From Proteobacteria bacterium UBA2136 (GTDB lineage: Bacteria > Pseudomonadota > Alphaproteobacteria > UBA2136): 64,000 nt of DNA. This document shows positions 4,967-45,688 of the stretch, piece after piece (positions within the stretch are counted from its first letter, which is position 1; every line of letters starts with the position of its first letter). The stretch covers positions 104,913 through 168,912 of the forward strand of contig DCXM01000006.1 of the NCBI GenBank assembly GCA_002328405.1, written 5' to 3'. The notes under the pieces are model-generated. The model was not told the origin of the DNA, ran no database searches, and was given only the letters and a program-made list of their open reading frames with translations. Both the position numbers and the translations under genes were made by a program.

Positions 4967-4982
4967 ACATCGAAAACAAAAA

Positions 4983-5012
4983 AGCACCCTATTGATTAGG
5001 GTGCTTTTTTTA
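4983..5012. terminator. bidirectional rho-independent terminator
   Basis: agcaccct…agggtgct hairpin flanked by an A-run and a T-run, placed between convergent genes. Confidence 0.5.
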
Positions 5013-19671: not shown

Positions 19672-19698
19672 AAACAACCCCTTCGAATAAAAACACCC

Positions 19699-19730
19699 TC
19701 AATGCGAGGGTGTTTTTTTGTTTATCTACA
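19699..19730. terminator. bidirectional rho-independent terminator
   Basis: acaccctcaatgcgagggtgttttttt between convergent genes. Confidence 0.5.
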
Positions 19731-29979: not shown

Positions 29980-30010
29980 CAAAAAAGCCACCCTTGGGTG
30001 GCTTTTTTCA
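29980..30010 (+). terminator. rho-independent terminator
   Basis: aaaaaagccacccttgggtggctttttt. Confidence 0.55.
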
Positions 30011-35528: not shown

Positions 35529-35712
35529 TGTTTTTCTCTTCTTTTTGAATGCTTTAAAGTTAATTTTTGTTTATCAATTATTTTAAATTCCATTGTACCG
35601 TCATGTAAAGCATTTTAGCAAAAAACACCCTCTTACAGGGTGCGCATCCAAGGCAACGCTGTTGCAAATTTAATCTGTTTTAAATATTAAGAATGGTAAT
35701 GTCTTGCGCCGG

Positions 35713-39048: not shown

Positions 39049-39510
39049 ATGATGCCTTCACAATGCACTGAAGACCCTTCAATACCCTCACCCATCAACC
39101 AGAGCCTTGCCTGCGAAGACTCAAACATCAACCGTGTTTTTTGCAAAAGTGAAACGGGTAACATTCAAACGTACTGTTACCAAGATTACTTAAAAAACAC
39201 CGATGACTGGCCATTAAGCAACTGCGGTCAATTTCACATTGGCCCCACCGAAAAAAAGAACATACGCCGTTATGTTACCTTTTTTTACCGCGGCGGTTTT
39301 AAGTCATGCGACTTAATGTACGGCATGGCCACTTTAGAGAAAAAAGCCTGCGTTAAAACCAAACGCATTTTTTATACCCTCACCATGGAGCCTGACCTGA
39401 CACAAGTGACATGGCTTGATAAGTATCTGGTGAAAGACATTATTGCAGTGGATGATAACAGCAATGCAGCTGACCCCTTTTACAGGGAACCCGCCATATT
39501 AACGCTTTAA
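39049..39510 (+). CDS. hypothetical Cys-containing protein (153 aa)
   Basis: AAGGAA RBS; 9 Cys; followed by a terminator hairpin; no family recognised. Confidence 0.45.
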   Translation: MMPSQCTEDPSIPSPINQSLACEDSNINRVFCKSETGNIQTYCYQDYLKNTDDWPLSNCGQFHIGPTEKKNIRRYVTFFYRGGFKSCDLMYGMATLEKKACVKTKRIFYTLTMEPDLTQVTWLDKYLVKDIIAVDDNSNAADPFYREPAILTL

Positions 39511-39569: not shown

Positions 39570-39601
39570 CAAAAAAAAGCACCCGATGGGTGCTTTTTTT
39601 A
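39570..39601. terminator. bidirectional terminator downstream of pnp
   Basis: aaaaaaaagcacccgatgggtgcttttttt. The stem is near-identical to the 43170-43203 terminator. Confidence 0.5.
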
Positions 39602-39607
39602 TAAAAA

Positions 39608-41809
39608 TTACGCGCTGCGACGTGGACGACGATCCTTACGATCTTTTCTGTCGTTGTCTTTACGCTCTGGACGTGGCTGGTCACCACCTTCTTCTGCTGC
39701 TTTGATTTTCGCCGCAACAGCTTCGTTTTGGTCTTGACCTTTCATGGTCAAACGCACTTTACCGCGCTCGTCCACTTCCATGCAGTGTACAGTTACTTCG
39801 TCACCTTCTGCGAGGACAGAGTCCACAGTGCCAAGGCGTACGTTGCAAATTTCACTGATGTGTACCAAGCCATCTTGGTTTGGAAGAATGCTTACAAACG
39901 CACCAAAGTCTGCAATACGCACAACTTTACCTGTGTAAGTTTGGCCTGCTTCCGCTTCCGCCAAAATGTCTTCAATCATCTTCACAGCCGCTTTCAAGCC
40001 TTCTGCATTTTCAGAAGATACACGGCAAGAACCATCATCTTCAATGTCCACAGCAGCGCCTGTTTCTTCAATGATACCGCGGATAACTTTACCGCCTGTA
40101 CCAATTACTTCACGGATTTTGTCCACTGGAATTTGCAAGCTGTGCATTTGTGGTGCTGTGTCAGAAACTGTACCACGGCTTTCTTGGATTGCTTCAGCCA
40201 TTTTTGTAAGAATGTGCAAACGACCTGTTTTAGCTTGCGCCATTGCTTTTTCAAAAATTTCTTTGGTAATCGATGTAATCTTGATATCCATCTGCAAAGC
40301 TGTAATACCTTTTTCGGTACCACAAACTTTAAAGTCCATATCACCCAAAGCGTCTTCATCGCCCAAAATATCTGAAAGAATGGCAAAGTCATCACCTTCC
40401 TTAATAAGACCCATAGCAATACCAGCAACAGGGCGAGGCATTGGGACACCAGCAGCCATCAAACTCATGGAAGATGCACAAACTGTACCCATAGAAGAAG
40501 AACCGTTACAAGATAGAACTTCTGCAACCACACGTGTTGTGTAAGGCCATTCTTCTTTGCTTGGCAACATAGCTGTCAAAGCACGACGTGCCAACATACC
40601 ATGACCATATTCACGGCGAGATGTACCGCCCATACGGCCTACTTCACCCACAGAGTATGGAGGGAAGTTGTAGTGCAACATAAAGTGATCTTTGTATTCG
40701 CCTTCAATAGCGTCCACAATCTGCTCGTCACGGCCTGTGCCCAAAGTGGTCACACCCAGCACCTGCGTTTCACCACGGGTAAACAAAGCTGAACCGTGAA
40801 CACGGTTTAGAACGTCCACTTCACAGATGATTGGACGAATTTCGTCCGCCTTACGGCCACCAATACGCTTGCCATTTTCCAAAATGTTCGCACGTAGTAG
40901 TTCACCTTCAAGTTCTTTCATTTGTGCTTTTACAAGGTCTGCGCTGTACTCAGCATCATCACCTGTTGCAAAGGCTTCAACCGCTGCTTCTTTTACAGCG
41001 CTCATCGCATCTTTACGGTCCCACTTATCAGCGTGTTCGTATGCTTTTTGAACATCGGCACTGAATTTTTCTTTCAGTTTGCCAAAAAGTTCGCTGTGGT
41101 CAGGTGTTTCAAATTCGTAACCTGGTTTTGCACAAGCTTCAGCCAATTCAATAATCGCATCAATCACAGCTTGGTATTCATCTTTCGCAAACATAATCGC
41201 ACCCAACATCTGATCTTCAGAAAGTTCAGAAGCAGAAGACTCAACCATTGTTACACCTTCAGATGTACCAGCAACAGTCAACTTAAGGTCTGTTTCGTCA
41301 ATCACATCCATGGTTGGGTTTAAGATGTATTCGCCATCTTTAAAACCAACGTTGGCCGCAGCAATTGGACCAAGGAAAGGAATACCAGAAAGTGTCAGCG
41401 CTGCTGACGCACCAATCATCGCTGGGATATCACTGTCGTTTTCGCCATCAGATGCCAAAACAGTCAACACAACTTGTGTTTCGTTTTTGAAACCTTCTGG
41501 GAACAATGGGCGGATTGGACGGTCGATCAAACGAGATGTCAACGTCTCTTTTTCAGTTGGGCGGCCTTCACGGCGGAAGAAACCACCAGGGATTTTACCA
41601 CCAGCGTAGAATTTTTCTGTGTAGTTTACGGTCAGTGGGAAGAAGTCTTGGCCTTCTTTCATAGATTTAGCAAAAGTTACAGCCGCAAGCACCTGTGTGC
41701 CACCGTATGTTACCATAACTGCGCCATCAGCTTGGCGGGCCATTTTACCTGTTTCAATGGTTAATGGACGACCGCCCCATTCCATTTCTTTTTTGAAAAT
41801 TTTAAACAT
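39608..41809 (-). CDS. pnp: polyribonucleotide nucleotidyltransferase (PNPase)
   Basis: 733 aa; two RNase PH domains, KH and S1 domains, Arg/Asp/Lys-rich C-terminal tail. Confidence 0.95.
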
Positions 41810-42306
41810 TTTATTTCCTTAATTCATTTTTCAAAACGCCCTTTAGGTGAAGCGCTTCATCTAAAAACCCCATCAACTTTAAACTTAAGGCTTTTAAACG
41901 AAACTCTTCCACCCCAAAGAGCACAATTTTACCCACTCTTTATACTTCATTTAAGGCAAAATTTAAAGTGCTAAAACCAAACTGTCAGCTTTTTACAAGG
42001 GCAGTTTCAAGGCCTAGCCATAAGTTTTTAACTTTGACATTCAGAGTGGCAACTTGAAGGTGGCCATTCTGGTTACCGTTTTCAAGGTCACTTTGTGACT
42101 TTAACAATTATTTTGTGCGATTTATCGCACTTATTGACATATCAGAATTTATTCATGAATCAACTAGATGAGATAAGATTTTACTTGTTTGAAGGCTGTG
42201 GAAACGCCAGTGTATTTAACAATACACGCGTCCCGCAATATCTGAAAAACAAGAAAAAGATTGCTCATATAGAGTTTCAAGGAAAATTCTGCAACAGGAG
42301 AAACTT

Positions 42307-43146
42307 ATGTCAAACGTAACAGGTAGTACACAAAACAGCTGGGGATCTTTGTTAGTTGGCATGCTTGCAAAGGCGGAGATTGATGAATCCATCAGTCAAT
42401 TCAACCCAAAACCAGCGACCTTAAAGTTCGGGCGTTCAAAGCACCCAACAGGGTTTGGCGAACAACAGCAACGTGAAGCGCGTACACACCGTACGCACTG
42501 GAGCGATTGCATGGACGCTGACCGCATCGTGCGTTTCAAGTCTGCCAACGCACCTTCCATTGAAGAAGGCTTGGCAGAGTATGAAGAGACGCGTTGTTTG
42601 GGCGGTTACACCTCAACAAAAGCTGCTTACGCAGATTGCGCAAAGGAATACCTCCTATCGCAACACTCTTTGGAGTATCCTGATGAACAGGCCATGCTGG
42701 AACAATATGGTCGATTCCTGCTCAATCATGGTTATATTGAATGCCAAGAAACTCATTATTTCGCCAACTTCGTACCTTTTGAACACCTTCCACGTGATGG
42801 GCATATGCCTAAAGCATGGAAAGAATTTCAAAACGAACAACGAAACAAAGAGTATCAAGAACACATAGCATTCTGCGAAGATCATGGAATGATGTGCGAT
42901 GATGACCTTGACGGTTACTGGAATTCAGACAGCCGAACCGAAATGGAATTAGATGATTTTGATGACATGTCTAACTTCATGGAAAGCAATGCACCTGCGC
43001 ATACTTACGTTGCGCCGCTTCCTGCGGACAACAAAGTACGTGCTTGGTATGCTGGTAAAGGTAAAGTCGCAAGGCTGACCCAGCGTCAGTACACAGCCGA
43101 TTGTGGCCAGCCTGTCCCTGAAGGTTATGATCCTTACGAGGATTAA
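42307..43146 (+). CDS. hypothetical acidic protein (279 aa) inserted between pnp and rpsO
   Basis: CAGGAG RBS; Asp/Glu-rich C-terminus; no family recognised. Opposite strand to the surrounding operon. Confidence 0.45.
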   Translation: MSNVTGSTQNSWGSLLVGMLAKAEIDESISQFNPKPATLKFGRSKHPTGFGEQQQREARTHRTHWSDCMDADRIVRFKSANAPSIEEGLAEYEETRCLGGYTSTKAAYADCAKEYLLSQHSLEYPDEQAMLEQYGRFLLNHGYIECQETHYFANFVPFEHLPRDGHMPKAWKEFQNEQRNKEYQEHIAFCEDHGMMCDDDLDGYWNSDSRTEMELDDFDDMSNFMESNAPAHTYVAPLPADNKVRAWYAGKGKVARLTQRQYTADCGQPVPEGYDPYED

Positions 43147-43169
43147 ACCTGAACAGAAACATTTAGCGA

Positions 43170-43203
43170 AAAAAGAAAAGAGCACCCGAGGGTGCTCTTT
43201 TTA
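43170..43203. terminator. bidirectional rho-independent terminator
   Basis: gaaaagagcacccgagggtgctcttttt between convergent genes. Confidence 0.5.
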
Positions 43204-43222
43204 TATCGAAACAAAGCTTATT

Positions 43223-43576
43223 TTAGTCGCCAAAAATACCAAACAAGCGTGGATCTGCTTCGCAATATCCTTTGTCATGGTAACAATTGGCATAATACCA
43301 CTTTTCTTCACCATTTGGCTTGCGTACTTCAATTTCACAATCCACTTCGCTGTATTCGTCATCATCTGCGTCGCATTCAAGACCACCAATATGCTCCATA
43401 CCTTGTTCGTGCACATGACGCACCAAAAGCTGCTTGGCAATTTGTTCACGCTCGCCAGGCCAAACATACGGGCCAGAAACAATAAACCAAGAGCCATAAG
43501 CAATCGCGCATAACACTCCAATAATAACCAACACAACTATCAGCTCAATCAACGTAAAACCTTTTGAATTTTTCAT
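43223..43576 (-). CDS. type IV prepilin-like protein (prepilin-type N-terminal cleavage/methylation domain), orphan
   Basis: Met30 of the track ORF gives MKNSKGFTLIELIVVLVIIGVLCAIA, the class III signal peptide (G|FTLIE) shared by type IV pilins and T2SS pseudopilins. C-terminal domain has 4 Cys. Confidence 0.6.
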   Translation of the reverse strand: MKNSKGFTLIELIVVLVIIGVLCAIAYGSWFIVSGPYVWPGEREQIAKQLLVRHVHEQGMEHIGGLECDADDDEYSEVDCEIEVRKPNGEEKWYYANCYHDKGYCEADPRLFGIFGD

Positions 43577-43727
43577 GTAAGAATTTTCCTTAAAAAAGAA
43601 ATGAAAAGACAAGGTGTTCCCTAAGAACAAATTTGTTTTAAGAACCACACAGCCTTTTTTCAAGCCCTAAACACAAAAAAGGCCGCCTTAAAAGCAGCCT
43701 TTTTACAGTTTGAAACCTTAAGATTTC

Positions 43728-43997
43728 TTACTTACGCAAGCCAAGCTCTTTGATCAAAGCCGTGTAACGGTCTTGGTCTTTACCTTTCAGGTAGCCCAAG
43801 ATCTTACGACGGTTGTTTACAAGAGCAATCAAACCACGACGAGAGTGCTTATCTTGCTTGTGAGACTTAAAGTGCTCAGTCAAGTTGGCAATACGTGTTG
43901 TTAGAATTGCAACCTGCACTTCAGGAGAACCAACATCACCTTCGGCACGTGCAAATTTTTTGATCAGTTTTTGCTTATCAGCAGCTGTAATAGACAT
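43728..43997 (-). CDS. rpsO: 30S ribosomal protein S15
   Basis: 89 aa; canonical S15 (…[34 protein letters not shown]…). Confidence 0.9.
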
Positions 43998-44964: not shown

Positions 44965-45285
44965 TTATTTTTGGAATTTGATAATGCACATTTCAATGTC
45001 CGTGTCACAATACACATCTTGAATTGGGGGCTCTAAATACTTGGGGCAATATGGCATTTTTTGACTGGCCAATTGAAAGTGACATTCAGCGTCATTTTTA
45101 AAATCTTGATGAACGGCTGCACTGCTGCCACAAGTACCCTTAATAACCACACAGTCTGCATCTTGTTTGCAAGACTTCCATTCAGGTTGATATTCATCAT
45201 CCACCCGACCATCGCAACCATATACATCCTGAGGTTTTGAAGAAATCAAAAAAAACAAAAGCAACACAACTCTATGTAAACGCAT
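44965..45285 (-). CDS. hypothetical secreted Cys-rich protein (8 Cys)
   Basis: Signal peptide MRLHRVVLLLFFLISS from Met7 of the track ORF; abuts the stop of the upstream gene. Confidence 0.4.
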   Translation of the reverse strand: MRLHRVVLLLFFLISSKPQDVYGCDGRVDDEYQPEWKSCKQDADCVVIKGTCGSSAAVHQDFKNDAECHFQLASQKMPYCPKYLEPPIQDVYCDTDIEMCIIKFQK

Positions 45286-45286
45286 A

Positions 45287-45688
45287 TCAAACTTTCTTCG
45301 CATTTAAGTTTGCCATCAAATCAATCGACTCATGATTAACATCATCCAATCTTCTGAGCTCCATTTCAAGCTCTTGCCTAAGTGTCAAAATCTCACGCTC
45401 CAATTCCTTTATTCGATTCTCAGGCAAGTTTTGCCTTTTTGTGACAACATACTTCAAACACCTAACAACACCATAAACACTAATCAGAATCCAGCTTAAT
45501 TGAATAAACATCGACCCTGCATTAAAGTCCTTTAGCAATGAAATTGCCACAAGCAAAGCTGAGAACAAATTCAACAACGAATAACTCATCGTTTTAGCAT
45601 AATCCCTTTTAAGCTGTAAAAGAGCATATGACAACAAATAACCAAAAGCGCCACACATGCCAACAAGGCTATACAAAGTCAACTCCAT
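45287..45688 (-). CDS. hypothetical membrane protein with C-terminal coiled-coil (133 aa)
   Basis: Three predicted TM helices, then KELEREILTLRQELEMELRRL; inserted between rbfA and truB. Confidence 0.4.
   Translation of the reverse strand: MELTLYSLVGMCGAFGYLLSYALLQLKRDYAKTMSYSLLNLFSALLVAISLLKDFNAGSMFIQLSWILISVYGVVRCLKYVVTKRQNLPENRIKELEREILTLRQELEMELRRLDDVNHESIDLMANLNAKKV

Follow-up and report, generated by a model that had tools for sequence, protein, structure and literature searches.

Organization of the rpsO-pnp Interval

The genomic islet considered here lies between rpsO and pnp in Proteobacteria bacterium UBA2136 (assembly GCA_002328405.1, contig DCXM01000006.1). The stretch analyzed, referred to throughout as the window, comprises 64,000 nucleotides, and coordinates are those of the window unless another locus is named. 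The gene pnp occupies 39608-41809 on the minus strand and encodes a polynucleotide phosphorylase (PNPase) of 733 amino acids with the full set of PNPase Pfam domains; rpsO, at 43728-43997 on the same strand, encodes the 89-residue ribosomal protein S15 (PF00312, E = 7e-36), and is adjoined by truB on the side away from the islet. The spacing between the two is 1918 nt, in agreement with the approximately 1.9 kb given in a preliminary description of this DNA that had been made from the sequence alone. Read along the plus strand, the order of features is the pnp terminator, pnp, an open reading frame (ORF) for an acidic protein of 279 residues (ORF279), a bidirectional terminator, a prepilin-type gene, the rpsO terminator, rpsO, and truB.

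ORF279 is located at 42307-43146 on the plus strand, the strand opposite to that of its neighbors, and is preceded by an AGGAG ribosome-binding site; a non-coding stretch of 497 nt separates it from pnp. Its product, a member of a clade-restricted family that forms the constant core of the islet, has a pI of 4.9 (47 Asp and Glu vs. 27 Lys and Arg residues), and the opposite-strand acidic ORF of the earlier account was thus recovered intact. The prepilin-type gene extends over 43223-43576 on the minus strand. Translation almost certainly begins with the ATG at 43576 and yields a protein of 117 residues that begins MKNSKG/FTLIELIV, because an AAGGAAA ribosome-binding site precedes this codon and the orthologues are also 117 residues in length. 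Of the span of 42307-43663 originally assigned to the two genes, the lower bound holds but the upper does not; position 43663 is the end of a maximal, TTG-started ORF of 146 codons.

Each transcription unit of the interval appears to be closed by a hairpin. A bidirectional intrinsic terminator (AAAAAAAGCACCC-GAT-GGGTGCTTTTTTT) lies 3' of pnp at 39572-39600, and a second, at 43176-43201, is common to the convergent ORF279 and prepilin-type genes. The latter, which had been proposed previously, was confirmed as a perfect hairpin with a stem of 11 bp flanked by A- and T-tracts. A separate rpsO terminator, absent from the earlier account, was found at 43676-43704 on the minus strand as a 13-pair hairpin followed by a T-run.

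Conservation of the Islet Among Relatives

Relatives of the locus were gathered as 30 loci (L001-L030), and their relatedness was measured as PNPase identity with the window. The closest is L024 (99.5%), followed by L003 and L006 (94%), L001 (90%), L030 (88%, for a partial sequence of the first 131 residues), and L010 and L019 (80-81%). The series of identities descends through 90, 86, 85, 80, 76, and 73%, and then drops to 63% or less with Azospirillum, Kordiimonas, and other named Alphaproteobacteria; one further member of the clade is labelled simply Alphaproteobacteria. The clade to which the window belongs is thus isolated, uncultured, and marine.

An ORF279-family gene was found divergent beside pnp in every relative with a PNPase identity of at least 80%, in approximately nine sequence-distinct versions, and it lies between pnp and rpsO in L001/2, L003-5/9, L006-8, L027, L019, L010/11, L024, L020, and L030. 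In L024 the gene order is the same as in the window, with 97.5% identity over 12.35 kb, and L001 also possesses orthologues of both islet genes in the same order. The remainder of the islet differs among sublineages. The prepilin-like gene is common to three lineages, those of the window, L024, and L001. In L003-5/9, L006-8, and L027 (PNPase identity of approximately 94% for L003-L007), the ORF279-family gene is accompanied by a gene on the same strand for an acidic protein of 325 residues and, beside rpsO, by one for a Cys-rich membrane protein of 104-107 residues. L019 and L010/11 (80-81%) contain the ORF279-family gene and the 325-residue gene, and L030 (88%, partial) the ORF279-family gene alone. 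Divergence within the family can be considerable, in keeping with an old origin: the L010 member, from a locus with a PNPase approximately 80% identical to that of the window, shares 24-26% overall identity (E about 1e-16) with those of L003 and L006.

Beyond these relatives, the rpsO-pnp spacer is 213 nt in Kordiimonas (L028; PNPase approximately 63%), 677 nt with a small called ORF in the metagenomic locus L013 (63%), and 1085 nt with three small called ORFs in Azospirillum thermophilum CP029353 (L029; approximately 63%), while in L012 (76%) pnp is not located beside rpsO. The shorter spacers of these outgroups, together with the few homologues known of either protein (eight and three clusters, respectively; see below), bear out the view that lineage-restricted genes interrupt the usual rpsO-pnp linkage. 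The proposal that they were inserted, on the other hand, is contradicted by the presence of both orthologues in the same order in L024 and L001, an outcome named beforehand as one that would speak against it; insertion could apply only in the deep past and not as a recent event. The ORF279-family gene is a constant core, always divergent from pnp, and this organization is older than the diversification of the clade.

The 325-residue protein belongs to an acidic, Cys-free family (314-325 residues, pI about 4.4) that has no match in Pfam and is encoded alongside the ORF279-family gene in most lineages. The genes of this family are located at L003 8984-9961, L006 8950-9927, L010 4635-5579, and L019 6114-6944, and are lacking in the window, L024, L001, and L030.

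Products of the Islet Genes

Protein conservation with invariant motifs, coupled with ratios of non-synonymous to synonymous substitution rates (dN/dS) well below 1, establishes ORF279 and the prepilin-like gene as real genes that are constrained yet evolve much faster than their neighbors. Pairwise dN/dS values are 0.22-0.33 (ORF279) and 0.15-0.37 (prepilin-like gene), compared to 0.04-0.16 for pnp, rpsO, and truB. ORF279 has homologues of 43-97% identity, with the invariant motifs MSN..., KHPTGFGE, APS/TxEEGLAEYE, and AYADC. A search of 5.8 billion proteins returned eight clusters of them, and a profile search of 1.84 billion proteins nine representatives; among GTDB species genomes, the family was found in one, a metagenome-assembled genome labelled Magnetococcales bacterium MED694. 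ORF279 has no match in Pfam, NCBIfam, PHROG, or PADLOC, and its profile retrieved from the PDB sequences only noise at E about 1 (UvrA). An AlphaFold2 (AF2) model built from a nine-sequence alignment, mostly helical or disordered, has a predicted local distance difference test score (pLDDT) of 46.4 and a predicted template modelling score (pTM) of 0.29, and is too poor for a fold search. Our best guess is that ORF279, acidic and for the most part disordered, may act in the cytoplasm as an adaptor or regulator.

The assignment of the second gene as prepilin-like was upheld. Its product matches PF07963 (E = 5.3e-11; 42.1 bits vs. a cut-off of 21.2) and TIGR02532 (E = 8.8e-9; 34.8 bits vs. 16.3), and its N-terminus (MKNSKG/FTLIE) has the features of a class III signal peptide, viz. 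a short basic leader ending in Gly, Phe at +1, and Glu at +5. Full-length equivalogs (GspG, GspH, PilA, ComGC, and others in NCBIfam) align with residues 1-30 only, at 14-27 bits vs. cut-offs of 49-400. The mature part is acidic with four conserved Cys residues. The AF2 model (pLDDT 77), which would suit a small pilin, combines a long helix at the N-terminus with a second helix and a sheet of four strands. The orthologues in L024 and L001 share 86 and 77% identity, respectively, homologues form three clusters among the 5.8 billion proteins searched, and the GFTLIE-type motif occurs once in the window. The protein would be cleaved by a prepilin peptidase and incorporated into a type IV filament; its most likely role, as a minor or specialized subunit of a filament encoded elsewhere, has, in our estimate, roughly even chances.

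An inverted repeat, TGTTC-N5-GAACA (43615-43629), is found approximately 40 nt ahead of the start codon of the prepilin-like gene and constitutes a candidate operator. The motif occurs once in the window, and among the 30 loci it is confined to carriers of the prepilin-like gene (L001/2 and L024/25/26), with counterparts at L001 9288-9302 and L024 5948-5962.

The Divergent Control Region

Throughout the clade, strong conservation extends over approximately 330 nt upstream of pnp. Closest to the gene, a long irregular hairpin of approximately 38 bp (41838-41922, minus strand) ends some 28 nt upstream of the pnp start codon. Its minimum free energy is -40.8 kcal/mol (z = -5.75), and an alignment of nine loci supports 32 pairs, with 93.6% of cells paired and 13 two-sided changes, a result equalled by none of 500 shuffles; it matches no Rfam family. 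A candidate pnp promoter, TTTAAA-17 nt-TATAAA, lies further upstream at 41939-41967 (minus strand). Its GTATAA and CTTT..ATT elements are invariant in eight loci, and their spacing is kept despite an insertion of 54 nt further upstream in L019 and L010; the alternative offered by the prediction tool was CTGACA-17-TAAATT at 41988-41960. When metagenomes were scanned with a leader motif, the relevant loci among the 10 returned were limited to L019 and L020.

A second conserved hairpin, of 11 bp (42041-42072), is probably situated near the 5' end of the ORF279 mRNA. On the plus strand, 95.5% of its cells are paired, with five compensatory pairs (0 of 500 shuffles), and it was also recognized by eye in L030. 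The same helix on the minus strand has 10 broken cells, nine of which are A.C, the complement of G.U, and for this reason it is read on the ORF279 strand. A terminated small RNA was considered and rejected, since no terminator intervenes in L019, L010, or L030 before the ribosome-binding site and start codon of the family gene, both of which lie within approximately 70 nt of the hairpin; because of this proximity the hairpin is better viewed as an element of the 5' untranslated region (UTR). The divergent promoters would be approximately 80 nt apart and non-overlapping.

Nearer to ORF279, a 16-bp palindrome, GTGCGA-N4-TCGCAC (42115-42130), has conserved arms and a variable center in L003 and L006, and is absent from L001. 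In front of ORF279, the window and L024 also have approximately 140 non-coding nt (42140-42306) that are missing from other lineages. Inspection by eye of the intergenic motifs led to rejection of sigma-54 and LexA-box readings, the spacing and arm orientation being unfit. In Rfam searches, no family reached the gathering threshold anywhere in the window; the segment 39400-46400 gave terminator-like noise below threshold, and no match to the Escherichia coli RNA SraG even at E <= 1, the presence of an SraG model in Rfam being unchecked.

Origin and Evolution of the Islet

Taken together, these observations make it probable that the islet is old, vertically inherited, clade-specific, and native, and that its fast-evolving genes occupy the one permissive gap between rpsO and pnp. 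This gap, with the rpsO terminator on one side and the promoter and leader of pnp on the other, would accept genes without disturbance of either neighbor. The ORF279-family gene, divergent from pnp and with an mRNA probably starting with the conserved stem-loop, would represent the constant core, while the accessory content, which differs by sublineage, would be reshuffled by homologous recombination anchored in the conserved flanks. Four transcription units are proposed: rpsO, ending at 43676-43704; the prepilin-like gene, preceded by an inverted repeat of its own and ending at 43176-43201; ORF279, ending at the same bidirectional terminator; and pnp, with its own promoter and the approximately 38-bp hairpin leader. 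Because this leader has the architecture of RNase III/PNPase autoregulation in E. coli, control of pnp would presumably no longer depend on read-through from rpsO.

Recombination is suggested because the right half of the islet is incongruent with the flanking genes. By its flanks, the window is nearer to L003/L006 (pnp, 94%; rpsO, 91%; rbfA, 78%; infB, 89%) than to L001 (90, 83, 70, and 85%, respectively), and residues 1-202 of ORF279 follow the same pattern (51-54% vs. 45%). The last 77 residues, however, match only L001 (68%) and L019 (50%), and in this comparison the prepilin gene matches only that of L001 (77%). Two C-terminal types of ORF279 can be distinguished, type A (window, L001, L019, and P0135) and type B (L003, L006, L010, P0132, and P0136), and both recur in otherwise distant members. 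Such a distribution suggests that the content of the islet has been reshuffled by homologous recombination via its highly conserved flanks.

Several points weigh against this account. The case for recombination is based on pairwise identities of a few genes and not on a tree, and rate variation or the loss of ancestral variants could mimic its outcome. The two C-terminal types share aligned W247, R256, R260, and Q261, and they may have diverged from a single module instead of having been exchanged. Promoters, 5' ends, and the mutual independence of the four units are predictions from sequence, and the role offered for ORF279 is a guess. As to the prepilin-like protein, a fold search with its globular part returned no significant structural match, and no prepilin peptidase or machinery of the pil, gsp, tad, or type II secretion kind was noticed in the window.

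A related reading, possible rather than probable, overlaps with that of an old native islet and adds a selective cause to it: the position would be a flexible locus of the replacement type that carries alternative exported proteins of the envelope or surface, kept diverse through selection by phages, grazers, or niche, and exchanged via the rpsO and pnp flanks. The slot beside rpsO is indeed occupied by non-homologous proteins, the prepilin-like protein having no homology with the 104-residue protein of L003 or its relatives of up to 107 residues, and the phylogenetic discordance of the islet's right half would be expected. Moreover, the least similar 300 nt of the 12.35-kb alignment of the window with L024 fall in the prepilin gene (90.7-92.7% vs. 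97.5% overall), the product of which has 86% amino acid identity and a dN of 0.066, compared to 0.002-0.012 for pnp, ORF279, and truB. Nevertheless, the dN/dS of 0.15-0.37 indicates purifying selection overall, the presence of several other bins at 93-94% identity renders the peak modest, the three prepilin alleles are too few for a site test, and both export and surface exposure of the slot proteins are presumed.

A Possible Link Between ORF279 and PNPase

The constant pairing of the ORF279 family with pnp, the sole lead to its function, raises another alternative, that it represents a clade-specific regulator or partner of PNPase or RNA decay, co-controlled from the shared divergent region. 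The family gene adjoins pnp divergently in all of the approximately nine locus versions, the minimal one included, and this pairing persists while the remaining content of the islet changes. The control region of approximately 330 nt is conserved with structured elements on both strands, and there is a precedent in E. coli, where the opposite-strand RNA SraG modulates pnp (Fontaine et al., 2016; PMC5029454). We regard this alternative as unlikely. Plain vertical inheritance in a narrow clade predicts the same adjacency, and in L012 (PNPase identity of 76%) an alternative oxidase gene is found upstream of pnp with part of the leader kept and no ORF279 homologue within 7 kb. The putative promoters are back-to-back and do not overlap, and so give no indication of antisense pairing. 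Searches of ORF279 with Pfam, NCBIfam, and the PDB profile detected no domain for RNA binding and none related to nucleases, and the Rfam search gave no SraG-like match.

A functional tie between ORF279 and PNPase is thus distinctly doubtful, given that common descent in a narrow clade explains the divergent pairing equally well. In its fullest and likewise doubtful form, the proposal would make the ORF279 family an undescribed protein partner or regulator of PNPase or RNA decay, a protein-coding counterpart of the SraG-pnp pair, with the neighboring slot serving as an exchangeable cassette for exported proteins. The wiring to pnp would then be the shared divergent control region, comprising the 5' stem-loop of the ORF279 mRNA and the pnp leader hairpin.

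Evidence Against a Recent Insertion

In the preliminary description, the islet was taken to be an insertion into the normally contiguous rpsO-pnp linkage that had brought a duplicated terminator with it; spelled out, this would be a recent, horizontally transferred two-gene cassette with a copy of the pnp-type terminator, placed in a previously contiguous operon. The confinement of both genes to very few sequences, the spacer of only 213 nt in outgroups such as Kordiimonas, and the identity of the two terminators at approximately 27 of 31 positions are in keeping with such an event, but it is now very improbable. Orthologues occupy the same position in all members of the clade examined, down to a PNPase identity of 80%, and no empty site was found in any of them. 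Neither does the composition of the genes indicate import. With a guanine-plus-cytosine (GC) content of 0.469 and 0.432 at third codon positions (GC3) for ORF279, and 0.424 and 0.373 for the prepilin-like gene, both deviate by no more than approximately 1.4 standard deviations from the averages of the window in GC, GC3, and codon log-likelihood (GC 0.444 +/- 0.034 and GC3 0.442 +/- 0.052 for 62 long ORFs), and the GC profile across the window is flat. Both genes are therefore native in composition. A check for direct or inverted repeats flanking the islet, as might mark a target site, gave short matches at chance level only. No mobility genes were found at the islet and no integrase, transposase, or tRNA gene at its border; ORF279 has no match to a phage family (PHROG), and the window contains no tRNA or other RNA family at threshold.

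The terminators themselves are equally unremarkable in this respect. The core GCACCCGAGGGTGC at 43182-43195 does resemble GCACCCGATGGGTGC at 39579-39593, and two matches were observed against 0.01 expected from shuffles, a null that is the wrong one for terminators. The near-identity noted previously is real, but it is not exclusive to the two. Scanning of the entire window revealed six hairpin and T-run sites built on CACCC...GGGTG stems (4978-5010, 19689-19717, 29981-30008, 35626-35642, 39572-39600, and 43176-43201), and the arms of the first (AAAAAAGCACCC...GGGTGCTTTTTT) are identical to those of the pnp terminator (GCACCC/GGGTGC), with the same A- and T-tracts. Because six sites in the window use this stem, one of them with identical arms, the pair is not special, and the resemblance reflects a genome-wide style rather than a co-inserted module. 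The notion of a duplicated terminator module fails also on position. The pnp terminator has positional orthologues in relatives with related stems (GGACACCCGAAGGTGCCC; GGCACCCTTAGGTGCC), the L001 orthologue of the terminator at 43176-43201 is AAAGAGCACCGCAAGGTGCTCTTTTTTTT, and the rpsO terminator has positional orthologues in L001, L003, and L006, with GCCACCCGAAGGTGGC in L001 as a further instance of the style. The recurrent style consists of an A-tract, a (G)CACCC stem, a loop, GGGTG(C), and a T-tract, and most of the strong terminators of the window are perfectly bidirectional.

That one or both of these frames are open by mere chance, within an extended spacer, is scarcely credible: the lack of a known domain and the low-confidence AF2 model of ORF279 would be consistent with it, but the protein is kept at 43-97% identity across relatives with invariant motifs, both genes have good ribosome-binding sites and dN/dS values well below 1, and the prepilin motif is significant.

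Neighboring Genes and Significance

From nusA to pnp, the entire cluster has a loosened organization in this clade. The rbfA-truB interval (window 44965-45688 and its equivalents in L001, L003, and L006) encodes a Cys-rich protein of 112 residues with a hydrophobic N-terminus, 26-41% identical among relatives, in addition to a CBU_0592-family membrane protein; a TauE-family gene is found between truB and the 112-residue gene in relatives, and is lacking in the window and L024. Downstream of pnp, an ORF of 153 codons (39049-39510, plus strand) has no detectable homologue in L001, L003, L006, L019, or L010, the corresponding slot of which holds different small ORFs (96-164 codons). Since these differ, a second variable position flanks pnp. 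In L024, a gene for a protein of 152 residues, a possible homologue, lies at the position of the 153-codon ORF. Outside the clade, a PhdYeFM/PIN toxin-antitoxin pair lies between infB and rbfA of A. thermophilum (L029 479-1152), a further case of genes inserted in the conserved cluster.

The islet is, overall, an ordinary one with modest curiosities, and the value of its analysis is mostly corrective: what appeared in a single genome to be an insertion with its own terminator becomes, once relatives are compared, an ancestral and native feature. It shows that, in an uncultured marine alphaproteobacterial clade, the nusA-infB-rbfA-truB-rpsO-pnp cluster is interspersed with small genes specific to lineages, with a pnp leader that is structurally conserved and would be autonomous. 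It also defines a tiny, uncharacterized protein family always paired with pnp, and a small variable slot in which an orphan pilin-like gene is the fastest-diverging segment between near-identical strains. Current understanding would change only if ORF279 acts on PNPase.

Comparison with Known Systems

The prepilin-like protein resembles type IV pilins and pseudopilins in its basic leader ending in Gly, the FTLIE sequence with Glu at +5, and the four conserved Cys residues of its globular part. The hydrophobic alpha1-N helix and the long N-terminal helix combined with a four-stranded antiparallel sheet, all as predicted, may be further points of likeness. It differs from them in that similarity ends at residue 30 or thereabouts, and in that its gene is isolated within 64 kb and known as three alleles.

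Marine bacteria contain small flexible genomic islets that lie between conserved housekeeping genes. Like these, the islet of the window has a content that varies at a fixed position among close relatives, highly conserved flanks, and signs of recombination. Unlike them, it is very small (one to three genes), retains a constant core gene, and has no tRNA gene, integrase, or repeat at its site.

Within the Alphaproteobacteria, the rpsO-pnp spacers of L029 and L013 are likewise enlarged (1085 and 677 nt, respectively) and contain small called ORFs, such that the linkage is not inviolable in the class. These ORFs, which are unverified, are unrelated to ORF279 or the prepilin-like gene, and those of L029 are on the rpsO/pnp strand.

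The closest parallel to the organization of the interval is provided by E. coli, where the rpsO-pnp spacer contains the opposite-strand sraG and the bidirectional terminator T1 (Fontaine et al., 2016; PMC5029454). A P2 promoter downstream of the rpsO terminator serves pnp, and RNase III cleaves the long stem-loop of the pnp leader, thereby starting autoregulation (PMC5029454). The window departs from this arrangement in that its opposite-strand unit encodes a protein of 279 residues and not a 216-nt small RNA, its spacer of 1.9 kb contains a further gene, and its bidirectional terminator is not that of rpsO; there is no sequence or Rfam similarity to SraG, and the putative promoters do not overlap. 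The two loci nonetheless share an rpsO with its own terminator, an opposite-strand unit in the spacer divergent from pnp, a bidirectional terminator for convergent units, and a pnp with its own (in the window, predicted) promoter and leader stem-loop. A long double-stranded stem-loop in the pnp 5'-UTR, as in the autoregulatory leader of the E. coli type, is present in the window at 41838-41922 (minus strand), and by analogy it may be the site of RNase III cleavage and autoregulation of pnp.

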